Positions 4,359-29,658 of a stretch of DNA of 64,000 bases are shown in pieces (positions within the stretch are counted from its first letter, which is position 1; the number at the start of each line of letters is the position of its first letter). Where the stretch lies: positions 192,005 to 256,004 of the forward strand of contig CAVTBG010000009.1 in NCBI GenBank assembly GCA_963732895.1. Reading direction: 5' to 3'. The stretch is from an uncultured Pseudomonadota bacterium (lineage in GTDB: Bacteria; Pseudomonadota; Alphaproteobacteria; Rhizobiales; Xanthobacteraceae). Under the pieces are notes generated by a model. That model did not search any database and had not been told where the DNA came from. It saw nothing but the letters and a program-made list of their open reading frames with translations. The position numbers were made by a program, and so were the translations under genes.

Positions 4359-4361
4359 GCC

Positions 4362-6575: not shown

Positions 6576-6628
6576 GCTTCCCTGCATCGGCATCGCCCTT
6601 GCTTTCCGATCGTTCCCTCGGATGAGAG

Positions 6629-7045: not shown

Positions 7046-7070
7046 GTGACTTTGCCTCAAAAAGAAGAAA

Positions 7071-7835: not shown

Positions 7836-7854
7836 TGCGCCCTCATTTCTCGAT

Positions 7855-7905
7855 CGCGCATGATCTGATCCGAAAACCGGTTCCCACTTTTCGGGATCAT
7901 GCGCG
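7855..7905 (-). repeat. 49-bp palindromic element, copy 2 (overlaps the thiolase stop codon)
   Basis: cgcgcatgatctgatccgaaaaccggttcccacttttcgggatcatgcgcg. Confidence 0.9.
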
Positions 7906-9141: not shown

Positions 9142-9147
9142 TTGACG

Positions 9148-12899: not shown

Positions 12900-12937
12900 T
12901 TCCCTGGATAGCGTTTCCTGCCCTGCCGGTTCTTGTT

Positions 12938-12956
12938 GCGCATGATCTTATCCGAA
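12938..12956 (-). repeat. Truncated half-copy of the 49-bp palindromic element
   Basis: gcgcatgatcttatccgaa matches one end of the copy at 4310. Confidence 0.6.
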
Positions 12957-12990
12957 CAGGGGCGCCATGCGCTGGCGGCAAATTGTCGGC

Positions 12991-13015
12991 AATTAGTTGT
13001 CCTGGACAACTAATT
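12991..13015. promoter_or_regulatory. Perfect 25-bp palindrome, probable repressor operator upstream of the fcs operon
   Basis: AATTAGTTGTCC-T-GGACAACTAATT: 12-bp perfect arms, AT-rich, about 90 bp upstream of the fcs start. Confidence 0.75.
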
Positions 13016-13086
13016 TTCACCAGCCCGGGGCCACCCGTCAAGCGAAGCTTATTTCCGGGACGGGCGCGGCCCGCCAGGCCAAACCC

Positions 13087-13893: not shown

Positions 13894-14013
13894 TCGATCT
13901 CTCTCCGCTGTCAGGACCCGCGAAAGCGGGGCATCCAGTAAACACGGGCCGCGGCGCATTCAGCAAGAGCGGGGCTACCGGTTCGTCCGCCTTCGCGGAC
14001 GATGGCCGCGGAA

Positions 14014-15600: not shown

Positions 15601-16379
15601 CGACCATGGCCGATTACAAGCCCAATGAAATGATGACTATCGCGGCCGCGCGCGCGCTCAAGAACGACGACGTCTGCTTCGTCGGCATCGGCATGCCGTC
15701 GGCAGCCGCCAATCTCGCGCGCCTGACGCACGCGCCGGATATCACCTTGATCTACGAATCCGGCACGCTCGCCACCAAGCCCAACGTACTGCCGCTTTCG
15801 ATCGGCGACGGAGAACTCTGCGAAACAGCGGTCACGACTGTGTCGGTGCCGGAGATGTTCCGCTACTGGCTGCAGGGCGGGCGCATCAAAGTCGGCTTTC
15901 TCGGCGGCGCGCAGATCGACAAGTTCGCCAACCTCAACACCACCGTGGTCGGCGGCTCCTACGACAAGCCGAAAGTGCGCCTGCCCGGCGGCGGCGGCGC
16001 GCCGGAGATCGCCACCTCGTGCGGCGAAATCTTCATCATCATGGCGCAGTCCAAGCGCGGCTTTGTCGACAAGCTCGATTTCGTCACGTCGATCGGCCAC
16101 GTTACCGGCGGCGATAGCCGACAGAAACTGGGCGTGAAAACCAAAGGCCCGACGCGATTGATCACCGACTTGGCGCTCTTGGAGCCGGATCTGGAGAGCA
16201 AGGAGATGACCGTCGTCTCCATCCACCCGGGCGTCACGCGCGAGCAGATTCAGGAAAACACTGGGTGGGACGTAAAATTTGCCGCTCACGTCGCGGAAAC
16301 GCCGCCACCGACGGCTAAGGAACTCGAAGTCCTGCGCGAACTGCAGGCGCGCACCGCGCGCGCCCATGCGGCGGCGTGA
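15597..16379 (+). CDS. pcaJ: 3-oxoadipate CoA-transferase subunit B (CatJ/GctB type)
   Basis: CFVGIG, LIYESG (catalytic Glu), RLPGGGGAPEIA. Confidence 0.9.
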   Translation: MTTMADYKPNEMMTIAAARALKNDDVCFVGIGMPSAAANLARLTHAPDITLIYESGTLATKPNVLPLSIGDGELCETAVTTVSVPEMFRYWLQGGRIKVGFLGGAQIDKFANLNTTVVGGSYDKPKVRLPGGGGAPEIATSCGEIFIIMAQSKRGFVDKLDFVTSIGHVTGGDSRQKLGVKTKGPTRLITDLALLEPDLESKEMTVVSIHPGVTREQIQENTGWDVKFAAHVAETPPPTAKELEVLRELQARTARAHAAA

Positions 16380-16394
16380 GCAAAGGGGTAGAAC

Positions 16395-17600
16395 ATGCGT
16401 GAAGCTTTCATCTGCGATGCGGTGCGGACGCCGATCGGCCGCTATGCCGGCGGCCTCGCCAAGGTGCGCGCCGACGATCTCGGCGCCATCCCGATCAGGG
16501 CGCTGATCAAGCGCAACCCCAAGATTGATTGGGAGAAGCTCGACGAGGTGTTCTACGGCTGCGCCAATCAGGCCGGGGAGGACAACCGCAACGTCGCACG
16601 CATGGCGCTTCTGCTCGGCGGGCTGCCCGACAACGTGCCGGGCGTGACGCTCAATCGCTTGTGCGCCTCCGGCATGGAGGCGGTGGGCGCCGCCGCCCGC
16701 GCCATCCGCGCCGGCGAAATGGATTTCGCCATCGCAGGCGGCGTCGAATCCATGACTCGCGCGCCCTTCGTGCGAGGCAAGAGCGACGAGGCCTTCTCGC
16801 GTAAGGTCGAGGTCTTCGACACCACCATCGGCTGGCGTTTCGTCAATCCGCTGATGAAGCAGCAATACGGCATCGACTCGATGCCGGAGACCGGTGAGAA
16901 CGTGGCCGAGGAATTCCAGGTCAGCCGCGCCGATCAGGACGCGTTCGCGTTGCGCTCGCAGCAGCGCGCCGCCAAGGCGCAGGCCGACGGCTATTTCGCC
17001 GCCGAGATCGTGCCGGTGGAGATCGCTGGCCGCAAGGAGACGGTGACCGTCGATATGGACGAGCATCCGCGGCCGCAGACCACGCTCGAGCAACTCGCCA
17101 AGCTGAAGACGCCGTTCCGCAACCCCGGCACAGTCACTGCCGGCAATGCTTCCGGCGTCAACGACGGAGCCGCCGCCGTGATCGTCGCTTCGGAAGAGGC
17201 GGTGAAGGCGCACGGGCTGACGCCGCGTGCGCGCGTGCTCGGCATGGCCTCGGCGGCGGTGCCGCCGCGCATCATGGGCATCGGGCCGGTGCCGGCGTCT
17301 CAAAAATTGATGGCGCGCCTTGGGCACAAGATCGGTGACTATGATTTGATTGAGATCAACGAGGCCTTCGCCTCGCAGTCGCTAGCTTGCCTGCGCCAGC
17401 TCGGCCTTCCGGACGATGCGGCCCAAGTCAATCCGCACGGCGGAGCGATTGCGCTCGGCCATCCATTGGGCATGTCGGGTACCCGCTTGGTGCTGACGGC
17501 CGCGCACGGGCTTGAAACGCAGGGCGGCAAGCTAGCGCTTGCCACCATGTGCGTCGGTGTCGGTCAAGGCGCATCGCTGGCCATCGAGCGAGTCACCTGA
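16395..17600 (+). CDS. pcaF: 3-oxoadipyl-CoA thiolase
   Basis: CANQAGEDNRNVARM, NRLCASG, DTTIGWRFVNP, GHPLGMSG, MCVGVGQG. Confidence 0.95.
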   Translation: MREAFICDAVRTPIGRYAGGLAKVRADDLGAIPIRALIKRNPKIDWEKLDEVFYGCANQAGEDNRNVARMALLLGGLPDNVPGVTLNRLCASGMEAVGAAARAIRAGEMDFAIAGGVESMTRAPFVRGKSDEAFSRKVEVFDTTIGWRFVNPLMKQQYGIDSMPETGENVAEEFQVSRADQDAFALRSQQRAAKAQADGYFAAEIVPVEIAGRKETVTVDMDEHPRPQTTLEQLAKLKTPFRNPGTVTAGNASGVNDGAAAVIVASEEAVKAHGLTPRARVLGMASAAVPPRIMGIGPVPASQKLMARLGHKIGDYDLIEINEAFASQSLACLRQLGLPDDAAQVNPHGGAIALGHPLGMSGTRLVLTAAHGLETQGGKLALATMCVGVGQGASLAIERVT

Positions 17601-17633
17601 GCAGAGCCAAGAACAGAAAACGAAGGGACGACA

Positions 17634-18341
17634 ATGTCGCTGATCTATCCGAGGGAGAGCCTCAGTGCTTTTCCCAAGCACTTGAGCCCCGAGTACCGCA
17701 GCACGGTGAAGCGCTCGCCCTCGAAGCCGCTCATCCTCGTGCCGCACACGCTGTCGGAATTGACCGGCCCGGTCTATGGTCACGACTCGGTGCAGGAAGG
17801 CGATAACGACCTCACCAAGCAGCACAAGGGCGAGCCGCTCGGCGAGCGCATCATCGTGCACGGTCATGTGCTCGACGAGGACAAGCGCCCGCAGCCCGAT
17901 ACGCTGGTGGAGATCTGGCAGGCCAACGCCTGCGGCCGCTATGTGCACATTGTCGACCAGCACCCGGCGCCGCTCGATCCCAACTTCACCGGCGGCGGGC
18001 GCACCGTCACCGACGAGAACGGCTATTACCGCTTCGTGACTGTGAAGCCGGGCGCCTATCCGTGGGGCAATCACCACAACGCCTGGCGGCCCAACCACAT
18101 CCACTTTTCGGTGTTCGGCCACTCGTTCCTGTCGCGGCTGGTCACACAGATGTATTTCCCCGGCGATCCGCTGTTCCCGTTCGATCCGATCTTCAACTCG
18201 GTCACTGACGAGAAGGCGCGCCAACGCATGGTCTCGAGCTTCGACCTGGAAAACACCATCCCCGATTGGGCGCTCTGCTTCCGCTTTGACATCGTGCTGC
18301 GCGGGCGCGAGGCCACTCCTCTCGACACGGATAAGCACTAG
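17634..18341 (+). CDS. pcaH: Protocatechuate 3,4-dioxygenase beta chain
   Basis: EIWQANACGRY, PGAYPW, WRPNHIHFS Fe-ligand motifs. Confidence 0.97.
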   Translation: MSLIYPRESLSAFPKHLSPEYRSTVKRSPSKPLILVPHTLSELTGPVYGHDSVQEGDNDLTKQHKGEPLGERIIVHGHVLDEDKRPQPDTLVEIWQANACGRYVHIVDQHPAPLDPNFTGGGRTVTDENGYYRFVTVKPGAYPWGNHHNAWRPNHIHFSVFGHSFLSRLVTQMYFPGDPLFPFDPIFNSVTDEKARQRMVSSFDLENTIPDWALCFRFDIVLRGREATPLDTDKH

Positions 18342-18389
18342 CGCATGATCCCGAAAAGTGGACACCGGTTTTCGGACAAGATCATGCGC
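18341..18389 (+). repeat. 49-bp palindromic element, copy 3 (between pcaH and pcaG)
   Basis: gcgcatgatcccgaaaagtggacaccggttttcggacaagatcatgcgc. Confidence 0.9.
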
Positions 18390-18403
18390 AAAGGGAAAAA
18401 CTA

Positions 18404-19018
18404 ATGTCGGACATCACCCCTTCGCAGACCGTTGGCCCGTACTTCGCCTACGGCCTTACGCCCAAGGGCCGTTGCCAATGGGATCCCAACGGCAGCTATA
18501 GCTGGAAGGAAACCGTCAGCGACAATCTCGTCACCCCCGACGCCAGCGGCGAGCGCATCCACATCGAAGGCACGGTGTTCGACGGTGACGGCCAACCGAT
18601 CAACGACGCCATGATCGAGATCTGGCAGGCAGACAGCCAAGGGCGCTACGCCAGCCCGTATGACAGCCGCGCGCTGCCGAACACCCGCTTCAAAGGCTTC
18701 GGCCGCTCGGCCACCGACAAGAACGGTGTCTACAGCTTCGACACCATCAAGCCGGGCGCGGTGCCGGGCCCGGAGGGCAAAGCCCAAGCTCCACACATCG
18801 TTGTCGCCGTGTATTCGCGCGGCATGCTCCGGCAGATTTATACGCGACTGTATTTTTCCGACGACGCGGCCAACCAAACTGATCCCATTCTAGCGCTGGT
18901 GCCGGCAGACCGGCGTGGGACGCTCATTGCCCACAAGGAGGCGAAGGGCGGCCAGACAATCTACCGCTTCGACATCCGCGTTCAGGGCGAAAACGAAACG
19001 GTTTTCTTCGAAGTCTAG
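18404..19018 (+). CDS. pcaG: Protocatechuate 3,4-dioxygenase alpha chain
   Basis: TPSQTVGPYF, EIWQADSQG, QAPHI, RGML...TRLYF, ETVFFEV. Confidence 0.96.
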   Translation: MSDITPSQTVGPYFAYGLTPKGRCQWDPNGSYSWKETVSDNLVTPDASGERIHIEGTVFDGDGQPINDAMIEIWQADSQGRYASPYDSRALPNTRFKGFGRSATDKNGVYSFDTIKPGAVPGPEGKAQAPHIVVAVYSRGMLRQIYTRLYFSDDAANQTDPILALVPADRRGTLIAHKEAKGGQTIYRFDIRVQGENETVFFEV

Positions 19019-19071: not shown

Positions 19072-19305
19072 CCCACATATCTTGACCGAATAGTGGGCAA
19101 AGCCCATTACGTTCATCATCTGCCTCGCTATAGCTCGACATTTTTGACCGCGAATCTGCTTAAAAGTAGTCCGTCTCCTTCGTTCACTCCTGCCCATCCA
19201 CTGTGCCCAACTTTTCCAAATATTGTTTTGTGGTTGACGCCGCCCGTTTGGCTTGGTTCGCTAAGCGCATTAATCGGCCATCGAGAGCCGTACTGGGAAA
19301 CGCGC

Positions 19306-20721
19306 ATGAACGAGCAAATTCTCCAGGAGATCAGCGACTTTTGCCGCCAGCGCGGGCTCGCCAAATCCACCTTCGGCCGCCGCGCGGTGAACGACGGCAA
19401 GCTCGCGAGCCGCTTGCGTAGCGGTGGCCGCATCACCACCGACACGCTGGAGCGCATCCGCTCCTTTATGGCCAGCAACGCCGATGGCGCGCCGGCCCGC
19501 CGACGCGTGCTGTTCGATCCCGCGCCACCGCCGGCACAGACGTTGCCGGTGCTGACGCCACCGGCGCCGCCGGTCGCCTCGGGCCAGGCCAGCGACGACC
19601 CGCAGCGCAATTTCCGCTTCTTCGACAATCGGCAGAAATATCTTCTGTTCGTGAACACCTGCTCGGAGAAGTGGGAGGTCGCCAACCGCGTCAGCCTCGA
19701 GCTCGCCAACATCCATCCGCGCCCGCCGGCGGTGCGCGTGTTCGACGCCGGTGTCGGCGATGGAACCGTGCTCGCGCGCGTGATGCGCACCATGCACGAC
19801 CGCTTCCCCACGATGCCATTCTATATCGTCGGCAAGGAAATCAGCCTGGAGGACGTCCGCCTCACGCTCAATAAGGTCGCCGACCGCTTCGTCGAGCATC
19901 CCTCGACTGTGCTGGTACTCACCAACCTCGCTTATGCCGACGCGCCCTGGCTAGCGGTGAAGTCCTTGAGCGCGGCCTCGAGCCTGGTGTGGAAAGAAGT
20001 GGCGATGGAGGGCAACACCGCCCACGCCTTCGAAAAGCAGATCTCTGACCTCGAACCGTTCCTGGCGGAAGCCTGGAAGGCGGGCGTGTCGCCGAAGAGC
20101 GGCAACCCGGTCTATGAGCGGCCCGTCATCCTGGTGATCTACCGCAACGACCACCGCTTCCTGCTCGACCAGATCGTGCCCAAGCCGGGCGGCACCGTTG
20201 CCGACTACGATCTGGTGATCGCCTCGCAGCCTTATCGCGCGCGCGCCTCGCTTCAGTTCAAGGCCAAGCGCGTCCTGGCGCCGCTTGCGCGCGCGCTCGG
20301 GCCGGGCGGGCGTATGATCGCCATTCATTCCTACGGCCATGATCCCGGCATGGAGATCATCCATAAGGTTTGGCCGGGCGACGATCCGTTCAACCACAGC
20401 CGCCACGACCTGCTCAAGGAAGTGAAGCACGAATTGGGGGCGGCCGGCCGCGATCTCAATTTCAATGCCTATTCCGATCAGCGCTCGCTGTTCCGCTACG
20501 ACATGCACACGCTGCCGTCGGAAATCTCCAATTCGATCGGCACCTCCACGCTGCTCGCAGCCTGGAATGCGGCGATCTACGTGGCGCAGATCGAGGACGA
20601 CCGGCTCTCCGACGTCAACAGCGACCGCCGCTACATCGAGGCCACACGTGAAGCGCTGCAGAAGAACGGCGGGCTCTGGTTCTACGACGAGTCCTTCGTG
20701 ATCTCGCACCGGCGGGAGTGA
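19306..20721 (+). CDS. N-terminal Cro/XRE-like HTH fused through a Pro-rich linker to a class I SAM-methyltransferase-like domain (uncharacterised)
   Basis: 471 aa; STFGRRAVNDGKLASRLRSGG helix-turn-helix-like segment, PAPPPAQTLPVLTPPAPP linker, VFDAGVGDG (motif I), VGKEIS (motif II), YDLVIASQPY (motif IV-like). Confidence 0.75.
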   Translation: MNEQILQEISDFCRQRGLAKSTFGRRAVNDGKLASRLRSGGRITTDTLERIRSFMASNADGAPARRRVLFDPAPPPAQTLPVLTPPAPPVASGQASDDPQRNFRFFDNRQKYLLFVNTCSEKWEVANRVSLELANIHPRPPAVRVFDAGVGDGTVLARVMRTMHDRFPTMPFYIVGKEISLEDVRLTLNKVADRFVEHPSTVLVLTNLAYADAPWLAVKSLSAASSLVWKEVAMEGNTAHAFEKQISDLEPFLAEAWKAGVSPKSGNPVYERPVILVIYRNDHRFLLDQIVPKPGGTVADYDLVIASQPYRARASLQFKAKRVLAPLARALGPGGRMIAIHSYGHDPGMEIIHKVWPGDDPFNHSRHDLLKEVKHELGAAGRDLNFNAYSDQRSLFRYDMHTLPSEISNSIGTSTLLAAWNAAIYVAQIEDDRLSDVNSDRRYIEATREALQKNGGLWFYDESFVISHRRE

Positions 20722-21617
20722 GCGCCATGGAGGACCTGATGACGCTCGACACTGCGCCCGCGCTCGCGCCGGACCGGCTCGCGCGGCGCTTCTCGCTCGA
20801 AGCCACCCGGCCGACGGCCGACGAAATTGCGCGACTGGCCGATACCGTGCCGGCCGGCACCATGATCTATCTCACCGCGGTACCGAACCAGTCCGCGGCC
20901 GAACTGAGCGAAGCCGCCGCGCGCCTGCGTCAGGCCGGACTGGAGCCGGTCGCCCATATCGCCGCCCGCCGGCTGACAAGCCTCGATGAATTGCACGGCC
21001 TGCTGAAAGCCTTGCGCGGCGAAGCGGACATGCGCCGCCTGCTGGTGATTGGCGGCGACATCGACGCCAGCGGCCCGTTGCCCGATGCGCTGGCGGTGAT
21101 CCGGCAGGGCAATTTGCGCGGCCTCGGCTTTGAGGAAATCGGTATCGGCGGCTATCCGGAACCGCACCCGCGCATCGCGCCGGGGCGGCTCGAAGCCGCG
21201 CTCGACGAGAAGATCGCGCACGCGGCGGCGCAGGGCTTGCGTGTCCACATCGTGAGCCAGTTTTCGTTCTCGCCCGAGCGCATCCAGGCCTGGCTCAGGC
21301 AATTGCGCGGCTGCGGCATCACATGGCCGGTGCGGGTCGGCCTGGTCGGTCCCACCAGCGTGCCGGCACTGTTGCGCTTTGCCCGCCGCTGCGGGGTCAA
21401 TGCTTCGCTACGCGGGCTGGCTTCCGGGGTCGCCACCAGCCTGGTCGGCCATGTCGGGCCCGGCCGCATCATCGATGCGCTGTCGGCGGCCGACGATCTG
21501 GGCGATGTTGCCCTGCATTATTTTTCCTTCGGCGGAACAGTTGAAACCGCACGCTACGCGTGCCAAGCCGCTGCGGGACGGCGCGATGCCCATCGTGCTA
21601 TGGCTCACCCCAATTAA
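20718..21617 (+). CDS. metF: Divergent methylenetetrahydrofolate reductase (MetF-like flavoprotein)
   Basis: SLEAT, VAHIAARR, LVIGGD, GGYPEPHP, VSQF correspond to the MetF Glu/His/Asp/Gln motifs; GTGA overlap with the upstream gene. Confidence 0.75.
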   Translation: MSAMEDLMTLDTAPALAPDRLARRFSLEATRPTADEIARLADTVPAGTMIYLTAVPNQSAAELSEAAARLRQAGLEPVAHIAARRLTSLDELHGLLKALRGEADMRRLLVIGGDIDASGPLPDALAVIRQGNLRGLGFEEIGIGGYPEPHPRIAPGRLEAALDEKIAHAAAQGLRVHIVSQFSFSPERIQAWLRQLRGCGITWPVRVGLVGPTSVPALLRFARRCGVNASLRGLASGVATSLVGHVGPGRIIDALSAADDLGDVALHYFSFGGTVETARYACQAAAGRRDAHRAMAHPN

Positions 21618-21667
21618 GCCAGCCCGCCGGTTACAGCGCTGGGCGGCTCCTATGCGGAGGAAAAAAT

Positions 21668-22777
21668 ATGACGCAACGGACCAAACCGCCTTTCAGCGCC
21701 GACGAGGTCGGCAGCCTGCTGCGTACCGCGCCGATCAAGGACGCGCGCGCCAAGCACGAGGCCGGCAAGATCAGCGCCGCCGAGCTCAAGGCGGTCGAAG
21801 ATCAAGAGATCAAGAAGATCATCAAGAAGCAGGAAGAAGTCGGCCTCAAGCTCGCGACCGACGGCGAATTCCGCCGATCGTGGTGGCATTTCGACTTCTA
21901 CGGCGGACTCGATAACGTCGAAATTTACGAGCTCGACCACGGCATCCAGTTCCAGGGCGTACAGACCAAACCGCGCTCGATCCGCGTCAACGGCAAGATC
22001 GGATTTTCCGATCACTACATGCTGGAGCACTTCAAGTTCTTGAAGGCGAATTGCAGCGTCACGCCCAAGATGTGCATACCGGCGCCATCGACTTTCCATT
22101 TCCGGCTTGAGCCGAACGCGGTCAGCAAGGACGCTTATGCGAACCGCGATGCCATCTTCGACGATCTCGCGGTCGCCTATCAGAACGCGATCAAGGCTTT
22201 CTATGCCGCCGGCTGCCGCTATCTGCAGTTCGACGACACGGCCTGGGCCTATCTCTGTTCGCAGGAGCAGATGCAGCAGGCGCGCGACCGCGGCCTCGAC
22301 GTCGATCACCTGCAGGACAGCTACGCCAAGTGCATCAACAAGGCACTGGAAGCCAAGCCCGCCGACATGACCGTCACCACTCATGTTTGTCGCGGCAATT
22401 TCCGCTCCACCTTCATCTCGTCGGGCGGCTACGAGCCGGTGGCCGAGACGCTGCTCGCCAAGTGCAATTACGACGGCTACTTCCTGGAATACGACACCGA
22501 CCGCGCCGGCGGTTTCGAGCCGCTGCGCTTCCTGCCCAAGGGCAACAAGATCGTGGTGCTCGGCCTCGTCACCACCAAGCAGGGTCGGCTCGAGCCGCGT
22601 GCCGACGTCAAGAAGCGCATCGAGGAGGCGACCAAGTTCGTTGCGCTCGATCAGCTTTGCCTGTCGCCGCAGTGCGGCTTTGCCTCCACCGAGGAAGGTA
22701 ACACGCTGGCCGAGGACGAGCAGTGGGCCAAGCTGCGCATGATCGTCGAACTCGCCAGCGAGGTGTGGGGCAAGTAA
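21668..22777 (+). CDS. Core-only cobalamin-independent methionine synthase-like Zn enzyme (MetE C-terminal/YxjH family), paralog 1
   Basis: 369 aa; ADEVGSLLR, TDGEFRRSWWH, HVCRGN, LEYD, SPQCGF (H-x-C...E...C Zn ligands). Confidence 0.9.
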   Translation: MTQRTKPPFSADEVGSLLRTAPIKDARAKHEAGKISAAELKAVEDQEIKKIIKKQEEVGLKLATDGEFRRSWWHFDFYGGLDNVEIYELDHGIQFQGVQTKPRSIRVNGKIGFSDHYMLEHFKFLKANCSVTPKMCIPAPSTFHFRLEPNAVSKDAYANRDAIFDDLAVAYQNAIKAFYAAGCRYLQFDDTAWAYLCSQEQMQQARDRGLDVDHLQDSYAKCINKALEAKPADMTVTTHVCRGNFRSTFISSGGYEPVAETLLAKCNYDGYFLEYDTDRAGGFEPLRFLPKGNKIVVLGLVTTKQGRLEPRADVKKRIEEATKFVALDQLCLSPQCGFASTEEGNTLAEDEQWAKLRMIVELASEVWGK

Positions 22778-22788
22778 GGCCTCCACTT

Positions 22789-22903
22789 TTCCCGGGCGCA
22801 GCGCAGCACGCTGGTGATGCGCTGCAGACCCGGGATCGTTTGCGCCTGTAGCGGACCCGGATCAGCGGTGCACCGCTATCGCGCTGCACCGCATCCGGGA
22901 CAC
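22789..22903. repeat. REPIN-like doublet of (T/G)CCCGG...GC(A/G)GTGCA-type palindromes
   Basis: ttcccgggcgcagcgcagca...tgcgctgcagacccgggat followed by the inverted partner gacccggatcagcggtgcaccgct...tgcaccgcatccgggacac. Confidence 0.8.
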
Positions 22904-22915
22904 GAGGCAACGCAT

Positions 22916-24022
22916 ATGACCCAACGCACAAAACCGCCCTTCCGCGCCGACCATGTCGGTAGTTTGTTGCGTCCGGCCGCGCTGAAGGACGCGCGCGCTC
23001 AATTTGCCAAGGGTGAGATCGATGCCGCCGCGCTGCAGCGGATCGAAGACGACGCCATCAAAGCCGTCGTGAAGAAGCAGGAGGAGGTCGGCCTCAAGCT
23101 CGCCACCGACGGCGAATTCCGCCGCTCGTGGTGGCATTTCGATTTCTTCAAGGGCCTGCAGGGCGTCGACCTCATCGAGGCGCCACCGATCAAGTTCCAC
23201 GGCGTCGTCACCAAGAGCGAGGCCATCAAGATCAACCGCAAGGTCGACTTTGCCGGCCATCCGCATCTGGAGCATTTCAAGTTCTTGAAGGCGAACTGCA
23301 AGGTTACGCCCAAGATGTGCATCCCGGCGCCGAGCACCTTCCACTTTCGCCAGGGAAGGGCGATGGTGAGCAAGGATGCCTATCCCGATATCGACGCATT
23401 CTTCGCCGACGTCGCCGCCGCCTGGAAGAAAGCGATCAAGGCGTTCTACGACGCCGGCTGCCGCTATCTGCAACTCGACGACACCGCCTGGGCGATGATC
23501 TGCGATCCCAAGGAGCGCGAGCAATCGAAGGCGCGCGGCGACGATCCCGACAAGTTGCCGGCGATCTATGCGCAGATGACCAATGCGGCGCTGGCAGACA
23601 AGCCCGCCGACATGGCGATCACCATGCACTCTTGCCGTGGCAACTTCCGTTCCACCTTTATCGCCTCAGGCGGCTATGAGTTCGTCGCCGAGCAGCTGCT
23701 CGGCAACACCAATTTCGACGGTTATTTCCTCGAATACGACACCGACCGGGCCGGCGGTTTCGAGCCGCTGCGCTTCTTCCCCAACGGCGACAAGCAGCTC
23801 GTACTTGGTCTTGTCACCTCCAAGAGCGGGCGCCTCGAGCCGCGCGACGACATCAAGAAGCGCATCGAGGAAGCGACCAAATACGTGCCGCTCGAGCAGC
23901 TCTGCCTGTCGCCGCAATGCGGCTTCTCCTCGACCGAGGAAGGCAACGTGCTGGCCGAGGACGAGCAGTGGGCCAAGCTGCGCATGATCGTGGAATTGGC
24001 CGAGGAAGTGTGGGGCCGCTGA
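22916..24022 (+). CDS. Core-only MetE-like Zn enzyme, paralog 2
   Basis: 368 aa; RADHVGSLLRP, HSCRGN, LEYD, SPQCGF. Confidence 0.9.
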   Translation: MTQRTKPPFRADHVGSLLRPAALKDARAQFAKGEIDAAALQRIEDDAIKAVVKKQEEVGLKLATDGEFRRSWWHFDFFKGLQGVDLIEAPPIKFHGVVTKSEAIKINRKVDFAGHPHLEHFKFLKANCKVTPKMCIPAPSTFHFRQGRAMVSKDAYPDIDAFFADVAAAWKKAIKAFYDAGCRYLQLDDTAWAMICDPKEREQSKARGDDPDKLPAIYAQMTNAALADKPADMAITMHSCRGNFRSTFIASGGYEFVAEQLLGNTNFDGYFLEYDTDRAGGFEPLRFFPNGDKQLVLGLVTSKSGRLEPRDDIKKRIEEATKYVPLEQLCLSPQCGFSSTEEGNVLAEDEQWAKLRMIVELAEEVWGR

Positions 24023-24024
24023 TC

Positions 24025-24117
24025 GTCGTCCCCGCGAAGGCGGGGACCCATACGCCGTGTACTATCGTTAACTGCGGAGTATGGGTCCCGGCCCTCGCTC
24101 CGCTCGGCCGGGACGAC
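24025..24117. repeat. REPIN-like doublet of GTCGTCCC...GGGACCCATA palindromes, copy 1
   Basis: gtcgtccccgcgaaggcggggacccata...tatgggtcccggccctcgctccgctcggccgggacgac. Confidence 0.88.
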
Positions 24118-24124
24118 AAACTCC

Positions 24125-25231
24125 ATGCAACGCACCAAACCGCCCTTCCGCGCCGACCATGTCGGCAGCCTGTTGCGCACCGCGCCTTTGAAAGATGCGC
24201 GTGCCAAGCACGAAAAGGGCGAGATCGACGCCGCCGCGCTCAGCGCAGTGGAAGATCTGGAAATCCAGAGGATCATCAAGCGCCAGGAGGACATCGGCCT
24301 GAAAGCCGTGACCGACGGCGAATTCCGCCGCGCTTTCTGGAATTACGACTTTCTCGGCGGGCTCGACGGCGTCGAAGCCTATCTTGGTGAGCGCAAGATC
24401 AAGTTCCAGGGTATCCAGCCCAAGCCGATGATGCTGCGGGTTACGGCTGAGCTCGGCACGTTCTCCGGCCACCCGATGATCGAGCACTTCAAATTCGTGC
24501 AGGCACACACTAAAGTCGTGCCGAAAATGACGATCCCCTCGCCGTCGTCCTTGCATTTTCGCTACGGCCGCGATGCGGTGCCGGAATCGATCTACCCCGA
24601 CATGGGCGTTTTCTACCGCGACCTCGGCGCCACCTACCGACAGGCTGTGCGCGCTTTTGCCGATGCCGGCTGCCGCTACCTGCAGCTCGACGAGGTCAAT
24701 TTCACATATCTTTGCGATCCGAAGCTGCGCGCGCAGGTGGCGAACCGCGGCGACGATCCCGAGCAGCTTCCTTCGATCTATGCCGGCATGATCAACGCGG
24801 CGATCTCCGACATCCCGGACGACATGACCATCGCCATGCATCTGTGCCGCGGCAATTTCCAATCCACGTTCGTGGCCTCGGGCGGCTACGAGCCGGTGGC
24901 GGAGATCCTGTTTAACACCATCAACGTCCACGGCTATTTCATGGAGTACGATTCCGACCGCGCCGGCGGCTTCGAGCCGCTGCGTTTTGTCCCTAAGGGC
25001 AAGACGGTGGTGCTCGGTCTCGTCACGACGAAGTCGGGGCGGCTCGAATCGCGCGACGAGCTCAAGCGCCGCATCGACGAGGCTTCCAAATACATCGACC
25101 TTGATCAGTTGTGCCTGTCGCCGCAATGCGGCTTTGCCTCAACCGAAGAGGGCAACCTGCTGGCGGAAGAGGAACAGTGGGCTAAGCTCAGGACGATCGT
25201 CGAGGTGGCGCAAGAGATTTGGGGCCGTTGA
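24125..25231 (+). CDS. Core-only MetE-like Zn enzyme, paralog 3
   Basis: 368 aa; RADHVGSLLR, HLCRGN, MEYD, SPQCGF. Confidence 0.9.
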   Translation: MQRTKPPFRADHVGSLLRTAPLKDARAKHEKGEIDAAALSAVEDLEIQRIIKRQEDIGLKAVTDGEFRRAFWNYDFLGGLDGVEAYLGERKIKFQGIQPKPMMLRVTAELGTFSGHPMIEHFKFVQAHTKVVPKMTIPSPSSLHFRYGRDAVPESIYPDMGVFYRDLGATYRQAVRAFADAGCRYLQLDEVNFTYLCDPKLRAQVANRGDDPEQLPSIYAGMINAAISDIPDDMTIAMHLCRGNFQSTFVASGGYEPVAEILFNTINVHGYFMEYDSDRAGGFEPLRFVPKGKTVVLGLVTTKSGRLESRDELKRRIDEASKYIDLDQLCLSPQCGFASTEEGNLLAEEEQWAKLRTIVEVAQEIWGR

Positions 25232-25232
25232 G

Positions 25233-25261
25233 TTATCCCTCCCCTTTCAGGGGAGGGATAA
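25233..25261. repeat. CCCTCCCC-type REP hairpin
   Basis: ttatccctcccct-ttc-aggggagggataa, 13-bp perfect stem; related hairpin at 34813. Confidence 0.75.
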
Positions 25262-25284
25262 AAAAGTGCAGGGAGAGAAACAAA

Positions 25285-26385
25285 ATGTTGCGCACCGTTC
25301 CCCCCTTCCGCGCCGATCATGTCGGCAGCCTCTTGCGCCCGGCCGCGCTCAAAGAAGCGCGCGCGCAATTCGCCAAGGGCGAGATCGATGTCGCCGCGCT
25401 GAAAGCGGTCGAAGACCACGAGATCGAACGCGTCATCAAGAAGCAGGAGGAAGTCGGGCTTAAGAGCATCACCGACGGCGAGTTTCGCCGTTCGTGGTGG
25501 CATCTCGACTTCCTATGGGGGCTCGATGGTGTGGAGAAGCACGTGATGGATGCGGGCGTCGCGTTTGCGGGCGTCAACACCCGCAACGAGGGCGTCAAGG
25601 TCACCGGTAAGATCGACTCTTCCCATCATCCGATGATCGAGCATTTCAAGTTCGTCGCCGCGCACACCCGCCGCACACCCAAGATCACCATCCCGGCGCC
25701 CTCGGCGCTTTATGGGCGGCCCATGCGCCCGCCGATTGACGGGAAGATCTATCCGAAGCTCGACAAGATGTTTGAGGATCTCGGCCAGGCATACAAAAAG
25801 GCCGTGCGCGCCTTCGCCGATGCCGGCTGTCGTTACCTGCAACTCGACGAAGTCTTCATCGCCATGCTGTGCGACGAAAAATACCGCCAGCAGATGAAAG
25901 ACCGCGGCGATGACCCGCAGAGGCTCGGCGAGCTTTACGGCGATCTCATCAACATGGCGATGTCGGACATCCCGTCCGATATGCGCATCACCATGCACAT
26001 GTGCCGCGGCAACTATCGCTCGACCTTCATGGGCTCGGGCGGCTACGAGGCCGAACAGGACATCCTGTTCAACCGCATCAAGGTGCACGGCTACTTCATG
26101 GAGTACGATTCGGACCGCGCTGGCGGGTTCGAGCCGCTGCGTCTCGTACCAAAAGACCGTCAGGTCGTGCTGGGCCTGGTCACCACCAAGACCGGGCGGC
26201 TTGAAACGAAGGACGATCTCAAGCGCCGCATCGAGGAAGCGGCCAAATACATTTCGCTCGACCAGCTTTGCCTCTCCCCGCAATGCGGCTTCGCCTCGAC
26301 GGAAGAGGGCAACACGCTCGCCGAAGAAGAGCAGTGGGCCAAGCTGCGCATGATCGTCGAATTAGCGGAAGAGGTGTGGGGTTGA
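25285..26385 (+). CDS. Core-only MetE-like Zn enzyme, paralog 4
   Basis: 366 aa; RADHVGSLLRP, HMCRGN, MEYD, SPQCGF. Confidence 0.9.
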   Translation: MLRTVPPFRADHVGSLLRPAALKEARAQFAKGEIDVAALKAVEDHEIERVIKKQEEVGLKSITDGEFRRSWWHLDFLWGLDGVEKHVMDAGVAFAGVNTRNEGVKVTGKIDSSHHPMIEHFKFVAAHTRRTPKITIPAPSALYGRPMRPPIDGKIYPKLDKMFEDLGQAYKKAVRAFADAGCRYLQLDEVFIAMLCDEKYRQQMKDRGDDPQRLGELYGDLINMAMSDIPSDMRITMHMCRGNYRSTFMGSGGYEAEQDILFNRIKVHGYFMEYDSDRAGGFEPLRLVPKDRQVVLGLVTTKTGRLETKDDLKRRIEEAAKYISLDQLCLSPQCGFASTEEGNTLAEEEQWAKLRMIVELAEEVWG

Positions 26386-26391: not shown

Positions 26392-26499
26392 GTCGTCCCC
26401 GCGAAAGCGGGGACCCATAACCCCAGTCTTGCAAAACAAGCGCAGTCCGTGGTTATGGGTCCCGGCTCGCGCTCGCTTCACTCGCTTGGCTGGGACGAC
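26392..26499. repeat. REPIN-like doublet of GTCGTCCC...GGGACCCATA palindromes, copy 2
   Basis: gtcgtccccgcgaaagcggggacccataa...ttatgggtcccggctcgcgctcgcttcactcgcttggctgggacgac. Confidence 0.88.
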
Positions 26500-26505
26500 A
26501 AGAAG

Positions 26506-27363
26506 ATGCCTCTCGACCCCGAAAAACTCCTCGCTCTGCAAATCCCTGACGTTGAGCACGTCTATGGCCCGCGCGATTGCATTGTGTACGCGCTCGGTAT
26601 CGGCCTCGGCCAGGATCCGGTGAACGAAAACGAGCTCGCGTTCGTCTACGAAAAAAATCTCAAAGTGCTCCCGACCTTCGCGCTGGTGCAGGGCTACGCC
26701 GCCTATTTTCTGCGACGGCAGGAACTGGGCGTCACCTGGAGCCATGTGGTGCACGGCGAACAGGCCGTTGTCCTGCACAAGCCGGTGAAGCCGGAGGGTA
26801 CGGTGATCGGCCGCACGCGCATCCTCGACGTGGTCGACAAGGGCGTCGGTCGTGGCGCGCTGGTCTATTCGGAGCGTGGGATCATCGACAAGCATAGCGG
26901 CGAACTGCTTGCCACGCTCAACCAGACCACGTTCTGCCGCGCTGATGGCGGCTTCGGGGGCGCGAAGCGCGACACACTGCCGCCGCACGCGCTGCCCGAG
27001 CGCGCGCCTGACGCGGTGGTCGATCTGCCGACGCGGCCGGAAATGGCGCTGATCTATCGGCTATCCGGCGACGTCAACGCGCTGCACGTCGACCCCGAAT
27101 ACGCTCGCGTGGCGGGCTTCCCGCGCCCGATCCTGCATGGGCTTGCCACGTTCGGCGCGGCGGGGCATGCCTTGCTGAAACAAGTGTGCGGCTACGATCC
27201 TGCCCGGCTCACTGCCATGGCCGGCCGCTTTTCGGCGCCGGTCTATCCGGGCGAGACCATTCGCACCGAAATCTGGCGCGACGGCGGCGTGGCGAGTTTC
27301 CGCGCTCGCGTCGTCGAACGCGACGTGGTGGCGATCAATAATGGCCGCGCGGAGGTAAGGTGA
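26506..27363 (+). CDS. MaoC-family (double hot-dog) (R)-specific enoyl-CoA hydratase
   Basis: YALGIG, VVHGEQ, YRLSGDVNALHVDP, PILHGLATFG. Confidence 0.9.
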   Translation: MPLDPEKLLALQIPDVEHVYGPRDCIVYALGIGLGQDPVNENELAFVYEKNLKVLPTFALVQGYAAYFLRRQELGVTWSHVVHGEQAVVLHKPVKPEGTVIGRTRILDVVDKGVGRGALVYSERGIIDKHSGELLATLNQTTFCRADGGFGGAKRDTLPPHALPERAPDAVVDLPTRPEMALIYRLSGDVNALHVDPEYARVAGFPRPILHGLATFGAAGHALLKQVCGYDPARLTAMAGRFSAPVYPGETIRTEIWRDGGVASFRARVVERDVVAINNGRAEVR

Positions 27364-28535
27364 CGATGGCGAAAGCCGACCACAGATACGAAGACCATGC
27401 CGATATCCGCGAGGGCGTGCGTGCGCTCTGCGCCCGCTTCCCCGGCGAATACTGGCGTACGCTCGACCGCGAGCGGGCCTACCCGACCGAGTTTGTCGCC
27501 GCGTTGACGGAAGCCGGCTATCTCGCGGCCCTCATCCCGGAAGACTACGGCGGCAGCGGCCTCGGCATCAGCGCCGCCGCCGCGATCCTGGAGGAGGTGC
27601 ACCACGCCGGCGGCAACGGCGCGGCCTGCCACGCCCAGATGTATACCATGGGCACAATTCTGCGGCACGGCTCGCCCGCGCAGAAGCAGGACTATCTGCC
27701 GCTCATCGCCAGCGGCGAGCTGCGCCTACAGGCCTTCGGCGTCACCGAGCCGACGTCGGGCACCGACACGCTTTCCCTGCGCACCACCGCGCGCAAGGAA
27801 GGCGACCATTACGTCATCAATGGCCAGAAAATCTGGACCTCACGCGCCGAGCATTCCGACCTGATGCTGCTGCTGGCGCGCACCACGCCGCGCGAACAGG
27901 TCGAGAAACGCACAGATGGCTTGTCGGTGTTTCTGGTCGACATGCGGCTCGCGCTCGGCACCAGTATGACCATCACGCCGATCCGCACCATGATGAACCA
28001 CGCCACAACGCAGATCTTCTTCGACGATCTGCGCGTGCCGGCGGAAAATCTGATCGGCGAGGAAGGTAAGGGCTTCCGCTACATCCTGTCAGGCATGAAT
28101 GCGGAACGAATCCTGATCAGCGCCGAATGCATCGGCGACGCCAAATGGTTCATCGACAGGGCGACGAATTACGCCAAGGAGCGCGTGCTGTTCGGCCGGC
28201 CCATCGGGCAGAACCAGGGCGTTCAGTTTCCGATCGCGCGCGCCTATGCGCAGATGCGCGCCGCCGAACTGATGGTGCACGAGGCCGCGCGCCGCTACGA
28301 GGCCGGCGAAGACATCGGCGAGCAGGCCAATATGGCAAAGTTGCTCGCCGCCGACGCCTCTTGGGCCGCCGCCGACATGTGCGTGCAGACCCACGGCGGC
28401 TTCGGCTTCGCCGAGGAATACGACATCGAGCGCAAATTCCGTGAGGCGCGGCTTTACCAGGTGGCGCCAATCTCCACCAACATGATCCTGTCTTACCTGG
28501 CCGAGCACGTGCTCGGCCTGCCACGGTCGTATTGA
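27360..28535 (+). CDS. Acyl-CoA dehydrogenase
   Basis: AFGVTEPTSGTD, INGQKIWTSRA, GMNAERI, QTHGGFGFAEEY. Confidence 0.95.
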   Translation: MTMAKADHRYEDHADIREGVRALCARFPGEYWRTLDRERAYPTEFVAALTEAGYLAALIPEDYGGSGLGISAAAAILEEVHHAGGNGAACHAQMYTMGTILRHGSPAQKQDYLPLIASGELRLQAFGVTEPTSGTDTLSLRTTARKEGDHYVINGQKIWTSRAEHSDLMLLLARTTPREQVEKRTDGLSVFLVDMRLALGTSMTITPIRTMMNHATTQIFFDDLRVPAENLIGEEGKGFRYILSGMNAERILISAECIGDAKWFIDRATNYAKERVLFGRPIGQNQGVQFPIARAYAQMRAAELMVHEAARRYEAGEDIGEQANMAKLLAADASWAAADMCVQTHGGFGFAEEYDIERKFREARLYQVAPISTNMILSYLAEHVLGLPRSY

Positions 28536-28536
28536 A

Positions 28537-29658
28537 ATGACGCTTCCGCTTGAAGGCCTCCTCGTCGTCTCGCTCGAACAGGCGGTGGCCGCGCCGACCT
28601 GCACCTGCCGCATGGCCGACGCCGGCGCGCGCGTCATCAAGATCGAGCGCCCGGAGGGTGACTTCGCCCGCGGCTACGACACGCTGGTGCACGGTGAGAG
28701 CGCCTATTTCGTCTGGCTCAACCGCGGCAAGCAGTCAGTCGTGCTCGACCTCACCACGGACGATGACAAGGCGCTGCTCGAAGCCATGCTCGCCAAGGCC
28801 GACGTCTTCGTGCAGAACCTCAAGCCGGGGACCGTCGCCAAGCTCGGCTTCGCCATCGAACGGCTGCGCAAAGATTATCCGAAGCTGATCTGCTGCTCGA
28901 TCTCCGGCTACGGCGAGAGCGGCCCTTACGCGCAGCGCAAGGCCTATGACCTGTTGATCCAGGCCGACAGCGGACTGTCGTCGGTCACCGGCGGACCGGA
29001 AGCACCGGCCCGTGTGGGCGTGTCGGTGGTTGATGTCGCCACCGGCATGAACGCCTACGAGGCGGTCCTCGAAGCGCTGATCGCCCGCGGCCGCACCGGC
29101 GAAGGCTTAGCCGTCAGTGTGTCGATGTTCGACGCCATGGCCGATTGGATGACGGTGCCGTTGCTGCACACCGAGGGCGGCAAGCCGCCGCAACGCATCG
29201 GCCTCGCCCATCCCTCGATCTCGCCCTATGGTGTGTTCAAGAGCCGCGAAGGCGGCGATATTTTGATTTCGATCCAGAATGACCGCGAATGGCGCGTGCT
29301 GGCCGAGAAGGTCATGGGCGATTCCGCGCTCGCCGCCGATCCAGGCTTTGCAACCGTGATCCAGCGCGCCAACCGCCGCAGCGACACTGACGGACGTGTG
29401 CAGGCGGCGTTTGGGTCAATGGACGTCGCTGAACTCGAGAAGAAACTGGCTGCCGCGGACATCGCCTATGCGCGGGTCAACGACACCAGTCTGCTGGCCA
29501 AGCACCCGCACCTGCGCCGGATCATGGTCGATACGCCGACCGGCCCGGCCTCACTGCCCGCGCCGGCCCCGGTGCGCTCCGGCGAGCCGCGCCGTTACGG
29601 CGCGGTCCCGGCGCTCGGCGAGCATACGGAGATGGCGCGGAAGGAATTCGGCGGCTGA
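28537..29658 (+). CDS. CaiB/BaiF family III CoA-transferase
   Basis: LEQAVAAP, GARVIKIERP, WLNRGKQS, YDLLIQA. Confidence 0.95.
   Translation: MTLPLEGLLVVSLEQAVAAPTCTCRMADAGARVIKIERPEGDFARGYDTLVHGESAYFVWLNRGKQSVVLDLTTDDDKALLEAMLAKADVFVQNLKPGTVAKLGFAIERLRKDYPKLICCSISGYGESGPYAQRKAYDLLIQADSGLSSVTGGPEAPARVGVSVVDVATGMNAYEAVLEALIARGRTGEGLAVSVSMFDAMADWMTVPLLHTEGGKPPQRIGLAHPSISPYGVFKSREGGDILISIQNDREWRVLAEKVMGDSALAADPGFATVIQRANRRSDTDGRVQAAFGSMDVAELEKKLAAADIAYARVNDTSLLAKHPHLRRIMVDTPTGPASLPAPAPVRSGEPRRYGAVPALGEHTEMARKEFGG

Follow-up and report, generated by a model that had tools for sequence, protein, structure and literature searches.

What is the function of six adjacent, co-oriented genes that encode a putative DNA-binding protein with a methyltransferase fold, a homolog of methylenetetrahydrofolate reductase (MTHFR) and four short relatives of the methionine synthase MetE, and that lie next to genes for protocatechuate degradation? 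This question is raised by a 64,000-nucleotide stretch of contig CAVTBG010000009.1 (positions 192,005 to 256,004 of the forward strand, assembly GCA_963732895.1; called here the window), which comes from an uncultured alphaproteobacterium of the family Xanthobacteraceae and has a G+C content of approximately 64%. The genes, designated g1 to g6, occupy positions 19306-26385 on the plus strand, and they constitute a real, conserved and functionally undescribed association. We propose tentatively that they form the methyl-group, or one-carbon (C1), branch of an island for the catabolism of lignin monomers in Pseudolabrys (Xanthobacteraceae). That the module serves the handling of methoxy-aromatic compounds and C1 units is probable, and the locus is best seen as a variant of the 'demethylase plus type 4 MTHFR' systems of lignin-monomer catabolism; the narrower proposal that the MetE-like enzymes are themselves aryl-O-demethylases appears rather doubtful.

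An earlier reading of this DNA, made from its letters alone (the sequence-only reading), had described six co-oriented genes of which the first two are coupled, and all the open reading frames (ORFs) as well as the overlap were confirmed. The TGA stop codon of g1 (19306..20721) and the GTG start codon of g2 (20718..21617) overlap as GTGA, and the MetE-like genes, all members of the family PRK06520, follow as g3 (21668..22777), g4 (22916..24022), g5 (24125..25231) and g6 (25285..26385), with spacers of 50, 138, 102 and 53 nt at the g2-g3, g3-g4, g4-g5 and g5-g6 junctions, respectively. The gene order pcaIJFHG-g1-g2-(1 to 4 MetE-like)-maoC-acad-CoA-transferase is kept in approximately 50 Pseudolabrys loci, whereas more distant Xanthobacteraceae retain no more of it than the g1-g2 pair. 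A survey of gene neighbourhoods, a step that the sequence-only reading had suggested, found the linkage of g1, g2 and PRK06520 again in other genomes, as the adjacency of the three recurs in other alphaproteobacterial families, and g2 and PRK06520 also adjoin each other in genomes G050, G173 and G240. The association seen at this locus is not due to chance. Since loci of the genus have anything from 1 to 4 MetE-like copies, its conserved core is the g1-g2 pair and not the six genes; the self-regulated module that had been postulated stands as an association, but with a smaller core. Among 401 evenly sampled alphaproteobacterial genomes PRK06520 occurs in 61, often in at least four copies, and is strongly enriched where g1 is present, with 26 of the 38 g1-positive genomes versus 35 of the 363 g1-negative ones (counts that ignore phylogeny).

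The surroundings of the six genes provide the main clue to their role. Directly upstream of g1, and kept with g1-g2 throughout the genus, are pcaI, pcaJ, pcaF, pcaH and pcaG (14740..19018, plus strand), the genes for protocatechuate 3,4-cleavage and the beta-ketoadipate pathway. They are preceded, mostly on the minus strand (2994..13959), by a gene set of the kind used for the CoA-dependent, beta-oxidative degradation of hydroxycinnamate side chains: an enoyl-CoA hydratase, two Fcs-like CoA ligases of ~625 aa, a thiolase, a short-chain dehydrogenase/reductase, a thioesterase and a tripartite ATP-independent periplasmic (TRAP) transporter, with a MarR gene on the plus strand. In Agrobacterium and Rhodopseudomonas, where it has been studied, this pathway ends at vanillate-type acids. 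The MetE-like genes are followed, in a conserved arrangement, by genes for a MaoC-type hydratase, an acyl-CoA dehydrogenase and a family III CoA-transferase (26449..29658, plus strand). The island lacks a known vanillate demethylase, since the genome contains neither LigM nor VanA_C (P450-type demethylases were not searched for). Scans of the genome for VanA_C and for LigM-type GCV_T domains gave a single weak GCV_T match (33.9 bits), tblastn with Pseudolabrys LigM found nothing, and none of g1-g6 has the GcvT fold of LigM and DesA (PF01571, ~470 aa).

Sister genomes differ in this respect. In 15 sister Pseudolabrys loci, including that of the isolate Root1462, which has one g3 ortholog, a ligM gene (E 7e-210 to LigM of Sphingobium lignivorans SYK-6) is placed between g2 and g3. 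Its presence or absence is polymorphic within the genus (L041:12383-13786, minus strand; also L007, L009, L014, L015, L021, L023, L034, L036-L038, L043 and L045), and a GntR/FCD regulator accompanies it in loci with one MetE-like copy. Among complete loci, ligM occurs in 4/4 of those with one MetE-like copy, 3/10 with three and 3/21 with four; the idea that ligM and extra MetE-like copies are mutually exclusive substitutes was rejected, as ligM is found together with 1, 3 or 4 copies. Beyond the genus, 40 PRK06520 loci of other alphaproteobacterial families contain pcaH-like intradiol dioxygenase genes in four cases (L111, L117, L124 and L125, one of them inside a pcaCHGB operon), ligM-like genes in three (L126, L130 and L145) and TRAP transporters in four. 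With an assumed base rate of one to two such loci in a genome of 4 Mb, the finding of four pcaH neighbours within 40 windows of 15 kb greatly exceeds expectation (binomial P ~3e-4). The sequence-only reading had framed the locus as one for the salvage of sulfur or onium compounds, which is unsupported, and had not taken the aromatic setting into account, namely the hydroxycinnamate beta-oxidation cluster, pcaIJFHG, the ligM gene that sister genomes carry at this place, and the ligM or pcaHG neighbours of PRK06520 in other families.

The second gene brings the locus closest to a known system. By its overall sequence, g2 is clearly a member of the S6MTHFR, or 'type 4', family: it matches the structure of S6MTHFR from SYK-6 (7XG9) over residues 16-280 with an E-value of 1.6e-55 (192 bits), the Thermus, Neisseria and E. 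coli MetF structures only at 5e-5 to 0.8, and the Pfam MTHFR model at 25.8 bits, barely over its cut-off. The MetF-like flavin reductase of the sequence-only reading is accordingly an MTHFR homolog, but one that groups with S6MTHFR and not with ordinary MetF. S6MTHFR oxidises 5-methyl-tetrahydrofolate (methyl-THF) and hardly reacts with NADH, the binding of which is blocked by Leu48-Pro49 and Arg78, and the type 4 family works with the THF-dependent demethylases LigM, DesA, CmuAB and Dmt (PMC11868366). Pro49 (loop beta2-alpha3), Arg78, Phe215, Cys219 and Phe269 of S6MTHFR are all kept in g2. A Val-Pro pair aligns with Leu48-Pro49, Leu48 being replaced conservatively, and helix alpha8 with Phe215 and Cys219 reads LLRFARRCGV in g2 and LLRFAARCGV in S6MTHFR. 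At position 268 (loop beta8-alpha11; HYFSFGG versus HFYPFGG) g2 carries Ser; this residue is a conserved Pro in type 4 enzymes and Thr in types 1 and 2 (PMC11868366). By analogy with its characterised relative, g2 is predicted to oxidise methyl-THF. A reverse demethylation that feeds methyl-THF had been among the suggestions made from the sequence, and this direction agrees with the S6MTHFR-like nature of g2, although the aromatic context had been missed.

The genome also contains a canonical metF-metH pair on another contig, and Meth_synt_1, the N-terminal domain of full-length MetE, was found nowhere in it, in keeping with the earlier remark that neither a full-length metE nor metH lies in the window. 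The canonical metF next to metH is matched in two pieces, as is a third MTHFR-like gene beside ABC-transporter genes (two separate Pfam matches in ORFs of 170 and 284 aa); these split MTHFR genes (G000:C15:402960-403824 and G000:C1:296311-297157, both on the minus strand) possibly reflect frameshifts or assembly errors.

What, then, are the four MetE-like proteins? With lengths of ~368 aa and pairwise identities of 59-69%, g3 to g6 score 590, 574, 545 and 525 bits against NCBIfam NF005085/PRK06520 (cut-off 313 bits) and 59-66 bits against PF01717 (Meth_synt_2; cut-off 21 bits). Among solved structures the nearest is 1YPX, a structural-genomics entry for a Listeria 'methionine synthase family protein', and g5 matches it with an E-value of 4e-119. 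All four retain the zinc ligands His-x-Cys, Glu and Cys, found in the segments H(V/S/L/M)CRGN, (L/M)EYD and SPQCGF that align with the ligands of T. maritima MetE, and the homocysteine-binding Ser, Glu and Asp, where VGS, DGEF and LQ(F/L)D(D/E) align with IGS, GE and IDE of MetE. In MetE structures, this Ser, Glu and Asp contact the carboxylate and amino groups of homocysteine, and the DMV and NGW segments contact the pterin. Their description as core-only MetE-like enzymes in the sequence-only reading proved apt: the N-terminal folate domain is missing, with PF08267 matching the four proteins below threshold only, and the zinc and thiol sites are intact. Two active-site subtypes can be distinguished, DD-T-AW in g3 and g4 and DE-V in g5 and g6; g3 is the copy common to all Pseudolabrys loci. 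In a maximum-likelihood tree the four proteins are old paralogs, g5 and g6 being sisters, and sequences of other families are interleaved among them. A recent tandem duplication was rejected on account of this interleaving and of the 59-69% identity.

One might expect g3-g6 to perform ordinary MetE chemistry on monoglutamyl methyl-THF released by LigM-type demethylases, so that methoxy methyl groups would end up in methionine and THF would be regenerated in competition with g2. The genes do adjoin ligM and a type 4 MTHFR gene in sister genomes and in other families, and in SYK-6 the methyl-THF derived from LigM is described as the source for the synthesis of methionine (PMC11868366). This explanation is nevertheless quite improbable. 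The folate-positioning N-terminal domain is absent, the DMV pterin segment aligns to AFW or SWW in g3-g6, and NGW is replaced by unrelated residues. The present genome has no LigM as donor supply, and a characterised bacterial core-MetE is reported not to use methyl-THF (PMC7005905).

Very improbable indeed is a role as S-alkyl transferases resembling epoxyalkane:coenzyme M (CoM) transferase (EaCoMT), or otherwise acting on epoxides, on onium compounds (S-methylmethionine, dimethylsulfoniopropionate or betaines) or on methyl-corrinoid proteins. The fold and zinc site are common to such enzymes, and a gene of the MTTB family of quaternary-amine methyltransferases lies near one distant g1 homolog, but genes for a corrinoid protein, CoM or an alkene monooxygenase were not found among the annotated ORFs at 1-45 kb of the window. 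Moreover, the best NCBIfam matches of g3-g6 are PRK06520 and PRK06233, and not archaeal or MesD-like models; scores against other core or archaeal methionine synthase models (e.g. PRK04326, PRK09121 and PRK00957) are 27-95 bits, far under the cut-offs, the Mes family represented by each NCBIfam model being our assumption. CoM does not fit since the amino-acid (homocysteine) binding triad is conserved. No evidence turned up for the epoxide or CoM option of the sequence-only reading, with no reference sequence having been compared. Plasmid-borne MetE-like genes (in Klebsiella beside urea transporter genes, and in Roseinatronobacter) were considered as a further source of information; they gave no functional clue, and no EaCoMT-type context occurs among the matches listed or in the two contexts inspected. 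Note also that the genome encodes a fifth PRK06520 paralog with a long branch, 49% identical to g5 (G000:C8:185435-186646, minus strand; locus L129), which stands alone beside a PAS-domain chemoreceptor (PAS-MCP) gene and has the palindrome TGGGCGCGGGCCCA ~30 nt 5' of its longest ORF, with no credible riboswitch match at E <= 0.1.

The first gene of the cluster belongs to an unannotated family. No match to g1 was obtained with Pfam (E up to 10), NCBIfam, phmmer against the PDB or a plasmid collection. Over 8000 relatives are present in a set of 5.8 billion proteins, the nearest organism-named ones being from Pseudolabrys, and 312 representatives were retrieved at E <= 1e-30 from a 50%-clustered library. 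Among the sampled Alphaproteobacteria the family is found in 38/401 genomes (~9%), mostly with E-values of ~1e-140 to 1e-186 apart from a few fragmentary or divergent exceptions. In the AlphaFold model (pLDDT 85.8), a disordered Pro/Ala linker (62-106) connects a four-helix N-terminal domain (residues 1-60) to a large alpha/beta domain (107-471). The latter is predicted to adopt the class-I S-adenosylmethionine (SAM)-dependent methyltransferase fold (Foldseek probability 1.0 for HNMT, TmtA, GtmA and OxaG; TM-score to target 0.56-0.60), and the top matches, histamine N-methyltransferase and TmtA, are small-molecule N- and S-methyltransferases. The N-terminal domain, modelled alone, resembles the XRE/Cro-type helix-turn-helix (HTH) domains of HipB, C.Esp1396I and SinR with TM-scores of 0.6-0.68 and a root-mean-square deviation of ~2.1 A; the Foldseek E-values of 0.5-1 are not significant, since the domain is so small (56 residues). 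Together with operator-like repeats at its own promoter (see below), the HTH and methyltransferase folds of the models bear out the earlier description of g1 as a fusion of DNA-binding and SAM-binding parts. SAM motif I (VFDAGVGDG) and a GKE motif are kept in most homologs and lost in a branch of 38-41% identity, and an N-methyltransferase-like [SN][QH]P[YW] motif after strand beta-4 is conserved in the family.

Twenty g1 loci were fetched, of which 11 encode proteins with the HTH domain and nine without it. In 14 of the 20, g1 adjoins one of three kinds of MTHFR gene or metK: its neighbours are S6MTHFR-like g2 genes, a divergent third MTHFR type (seven loci, mostly with HTH-less g1) or metK (three loci). 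We conclude that the function of the methyltransferase-fold domain of g1 is linked to that of MTHFR and to the SAM cycle. The third MTHFR type is a subfamily of ~350 aa (L102:9173-10225; L095, L100, L101, L103, L105 and L106) that matches the Pfam model with 99.8 bits and Thermus MetF only at 3e-9, and by BLASTP is unrelated to g2. Six stand-alone HTH-bearing homologs have only unrelated housekeeping genes in their neighbourhoods. Distant homologs of 38-41% identity in which GxGxG is lost (L081 and L085, metagenome contigs; L082-L084) belong to catabolic clusters of other kinds; a VanA-like Rieske oxygenase and amine oxidases are encoded in one of these, SnoaL/cupin proteins and a TonB receptor in a second. 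Genes for a DAO oxidase and an MTTB-family methyltransferase lie near an HTH-less homolog of 49% identity. Members of the g1 family may thus have come to sense other methylated substrates.

The upstream region of g1 points to DNA binding at its own promoter. It contains the palindrome TGGGCAAAGCCCA (19094..19106), which has a single further counterpart of the form TGGG-N4-8-CCCA in the window and a motif conserved upstream of HTH-bearing g1 homologs; direct GCCCA repeats, GCCCATCCACTGTGCCCA (19192..19209), located just 5' of a -35-like TTGAC; and the conserved block TTTGTGGTTGAC (19227..19238, plus strand) that includes this TTGAC, occurs in nearly all aligned g1 upstream regions and is a putative promoter element. 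The phylogenetic footprint of the Xanthobacteraceae reads GCCCA-N7-9-GCCCA(-N8-9-TGGGC), followed by TTTGTGGTTGAC; the palindromic element is TGGGC-N3/4-GCCCA with extra half-sites. Upstream of HTH-bearing g1 genes in general, an array of GCCCA/TGGGC (or TCCCA/TGGGA) half-sites ends just before the TTGAC box. At the level of the class, HTH-bearing genes have 4.8 half-sites per 200 nt, as do Xanthobacteraceae promoters (4.8), versus 1.1 for HTH-less genes and 1.3 for random windows. The TGGG-N4-8-CCCA palindrome is present in 5/11 HTH-bearing genes at class level, 44/79 Xanthobacteraceae promoters, 0/9 HTH-less genes and 1.3% of random windows. An attempt to derive a genome-wide regulon from counts of GCCCA/TGGGC clusters was rejected, as these reflected only coding-region noise.

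Other regulatory signals in the cluster are few. Intrinsic terminators were not found between its genes, terminator-like matches being at the level of shuffled sequence, and a scan for the sigma-70 consensus gave no full match and match counts likewise at shuffle level. No SAM, S-adenosylhomocysteine (SAH) or B12 riboswitch reached the gathering score in the 64-kb window, and none was credible at E <= 1 in the cluster. A REP-like (repetitive extragenic palindrome-like) hairpin, GTCCCCGCGAAGGCGGGGAC, lies in the g4-g5 spacer (24028..24047), with a second copy after g6 (26395-26414, in the g6-maoC spacer). It is no obvious terminator, since it is a repeat dispersed in the genome (consensus GTCCCCGCGAA(G/A)GCGGGGAC; ~13 copies genome-wide, from 27 matches with both strands counted) and lacks a T-tail.

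Is g1 a regulator or an enzyme? SahR and SamR, regulators of the methionine and SAM cycles in Proteobacteria, combine an ArsR-type HTH with a SAM-methyltransferase-like domain (PMC4239095). They share with g1 the architecture of a DNA-binding head and a methyltransferase-fold sensor, and the proximity to metF, metK and methionine-synthase-like genes. Differently from them, g1 has an XRE/Cro-like fold and no ArsR Pfam match, a methyltransferase-fold domain that is much larger, carries insertions and follows a long disordered linker, operator-like GCCCA/TGGGC repeats in place of the 20-bp SahR palindrome, and relatives that lack the HTH. We lean slightly towards g1 being chiefly a regulator. Alternatively, g1 would be chiefly a SAM-dependent N-methyltransferase feeding MTHFR, for instance by converting SAM and THF to SAH and 5-methyl-THF; g1-g2 would then return surplus methyl groups to methylene-THF, the PRK06520 enzymes would act upstream by loading homocysteine from diverse donors, and the HTH would serve autoregulation only. 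In accordance with such an enzymatic role, the first two genes are coupled in translation, g1 homologs keep their pairing with MTHFR genes even when they lack the HTH, SAM motif I and the [SN][QH]P[YW] motif are kept in a protein whose top fold matches are small-molecule methyltransferases, and g1 co-occurs genome-wide with PRK06520 expansions. The conservation of g1 (51-64% identity across the class and ~87% within the genus, where g2 has ~69%) is also very high for a sensor domain. This model is nevertheless improbable: we know of no SAM:THF methyltransferase, and the cost would be ~3 ATP per methyl group. In addition, the operator-like repeats are specific to HTH-bearing members, which argues that DNA binding is a selected function, and the 38-41% identical homologs without GxGxG that persist in other catabolic clusters look more like ligand sensors.

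How the six genes could work together in methoxy-group metabolism may be outlined as follows. Judged by homology and context, the upstream gene set converts hydroxycinnamates of the ferulate type into methoxy-benzoates, for instance vanillate, while protocatechuate is degraded by the products of pcaHG, pcaIJ and pcaF, and g1-g6 occupy exactly the place where the missing O-demethylation step is expected. The g1 protein would bind the GCCCA/TGGGC repeats at its own promoter and tune transcription of the operon to methyl status, with SAM, SAH or a related compound as ligand, and it may retain enzyme activity too. The g3-g6 proteins would hold a homocysteine-type thiol on zinc, like MetE, and would receive the methyl group from a non-folate donor; the donors that the locus nominates are aryl methyl ethers (vanillate, syringate, 3-O-methylgallate and similar compounds). 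Attack of the Zn-thiolate on the O-methyl carbon would yield a catechol for PcaHG, together with methionine or another thioether, and different methoxy-arenes would be handled by the four old paralogs. Via the SAM cycle and the THF pool, the methyl group would return to one-carbon metabolism, with g2 oxidising methyl-THF to methylene-THF. Such chemistry is plausible because thiolates are classical reagents for the cleavage of aryl methyl ethers and a Zn-thiolate is the nucleophile of MetE, and aryl-ether demethylation by g3-g6 would both fill the hole in the pathway and explain several paralogs with two active-site subtypes. In its full form, the proposal holds that PRK06520 is a third class of aerobic aryl-O-demethylases, independent of folate and corrinoid, in which a Zn-homocysteine thiolate makes methionine, and that g1 (as a SAM-sensing regulator or a SAM:THF methyltransferase) and the type 4 MTHFR return the SAM methyl group to folate, giving a methionine-cycle route of methoxy assimilation in soil Alphaproteobacteria; taken as a whole, we regard it as unlikely.

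Several points weigh against this proposal. We infer the aryl-ether donor of PRK06520 solely from the neighbourhood and the hole in the pathway, and we know of no enzyme of the PRK06520 family with a demonstrated substrate. The homologs in Bacillus, Listeria and Lactococcus, which are not aromatic degraders, argue for a more general methyl donor, and ~75% of the 40 PRK06520 loci in other families have no aromatic neighbour. Many Pseudolabrys loci have both ligM and MetE-like genes, so that the two are no simple substitutes for each other. A methionine product needs the ATP-costly SAM cycle to release its methyl group, and the methyl-THF for g2 in this genome would have to come from g1 (SAM to THF) or from an unseen demethylase. 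The Ser in place of Pro268 and the Val in place of Leu48 make the catalytic direction of g2 less than certain. As for g1, no operator of its type is present in front of g3-g6, only 1-2 of 11 PRK06520 genes in other g1-positive genomes have one (a clean palindrome in L124 and a partial one in L120), and a pure regulator model does not explain why HTH-less g1 homologs adjoin MTHFR genes.

The main rival, and a serious one, is a module for methionine and SAM-cycle homeostasis that has no mechanistic link to aromatics: g1 would be a SahR-like sensor of SAM or SAH, g2 would set the level of methyl-THF, g3-g6 would be redundant B12-independent homocysteine methyltransferases with a general donor, and proximity to the pca genes would be a genus-specific accident or a regulatory convenience. 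Such a function would agree with the occurrence of g1 homologs beside metK and several MTHFR types, with the intact homocysteine and zinc ligands of g3-g6, with the lack of an aromatic neighbour at most PRK06520 loci, and with the presence of MetH but no full MetE in the genome, where a B12-independent back-up would be useful. Family members are also found in the Firmicutes Bacillus and Lactococcus, and Bacillus yxjG/H belong to the S-box methionine regulon. All the same, we think this explanation unlikely to be the right one. A single housekeeping reaction would not call for four or more old paralogs per genome, riboswitches for SAM or B12 are absent, and g2 is of the methyl-THF-oxidising and not of the biosynthetic type, the canonical metF-metH pair being located elsewhere in the genome. 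Furthermore, ligM is inserted at the same locus in sister genomes, and the adjacency to ligM or pcaHG recurs in unrelated families.

The interpretation as a methoxy-group module can also be set against known systems. The nearest is the ligM-metF-ligH operon of SYK-6, which encodes a THF-dependent vanillate/3-O-methylgallate O-demethylase and S6MTHFR (PMC11868366). It resembles the present locus in the kinship of g2, in the vanillate/protocatechuate setting and in the position of ligM beside g2 in sister genomes. However, GcvT-type demethylases such as LigM and DesA are missing from this genome, and a protein with HTH and methyltransferase folds and four MetE-fold proteins are found instead; ligH or purU were not identified among the annotated neighbours of the locus, protocatechuate undergoes 3,4-cleavage (pcaHG) here and 4,5-cleavage there, and g2 has Ser at Pro268. 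The 'methionine synthase II' or YxjG-YxjH proteins (NF005085 PRK06520, NF004875 PRK06233; 1YPX) have the same length of ~368 aa, zinc ligands and homocysteine-binding residues, whereas here four old paralogs stand in tandem, without a riboswitch, in an aromatic island beside a type 4 MTHFR gene. MesA-MesD and core-MetE proteins share the single-domain MetE fold without the folate-binding half and use non-folate donors (PMC7857596, PMC7005905), but g3-g6 match those models weakly (38-95 bits) and come from an aerobic organism that also has MetH. Pfam scans of the genes of the locus revealed no corrinoid or DUF1852 gene, and no genome-wide search for MesX (DUF1852) was made. Finally, the MT I/MtaB-type enzymes of anaerobic O-demethylation and methylotrophy are Zn-assisted TIM barrels that cleave the C-O bond of a methyl group and transfer this group to a strong nucleophile, for which they need a corrinoid protein and an activating enzyme. 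Neither of these partners was found among the annotated genes in and around the cluster, and the nucleophile proposed here is a Zn-bound thiolate.

At the borders of the island a few more genes can be mentioned. A 717-aa protein of the thiamine pyrophosphate-enzyme family (790-2943, minus strand) flanks the TRAP transporter of the hydroxycinnamate cluster, and a DUF3237 protein (14014-14466, minus strand) is encoded between this cluster and pcaI. On the other side, the island is closed by genes for an EmrB-like protein of the major facilitator superfamily (MFS; 515 aa), an HlyD-family adaptor and a MarR regulator (29671-32927, minus strand), which together probably serve the efflux of aromatic acids. 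A 490-aa ORF at 30466-31938 (plus strand) is probably a shadow ORF, as it has no family match and overlaps the MFS and HlyD-family genes of the opposite strand.

O-demethylation is often called a bottleneck of microbial lignin valorisation, and three types of aerobic O-demethylase are established: the Rieske enzyme VanAB, P450 enzymes of the GcoA type and the THF-dependent LigM/DesA. If the proposal were true, thiol-dependent demethylases with a MetE fold would make up a new class of enzymes that function without O2-consuming cofactors or folate, and a large family now annotated as 'methionine synthase' would acquire a function. On a more conservative reading, the concept of 'demethylase plus type 4 MTHFR' is extended to a genome without known THF-dependent demethylases. 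In either case g1 represents a widespread family without a Pfam or NCBIfam model, with thousands of metagenomic sequences, ties to MTHFR and metK and a recognisable operator, and it makes the control of methyl-THF oxidation versus methionine and SAM synthesis directly testable, with a bearing on the unexplained inhibition by methionine of the growth of SYK-6 on vanillate. The module contains two protein families, g1 and PRK06520, with testable roles.

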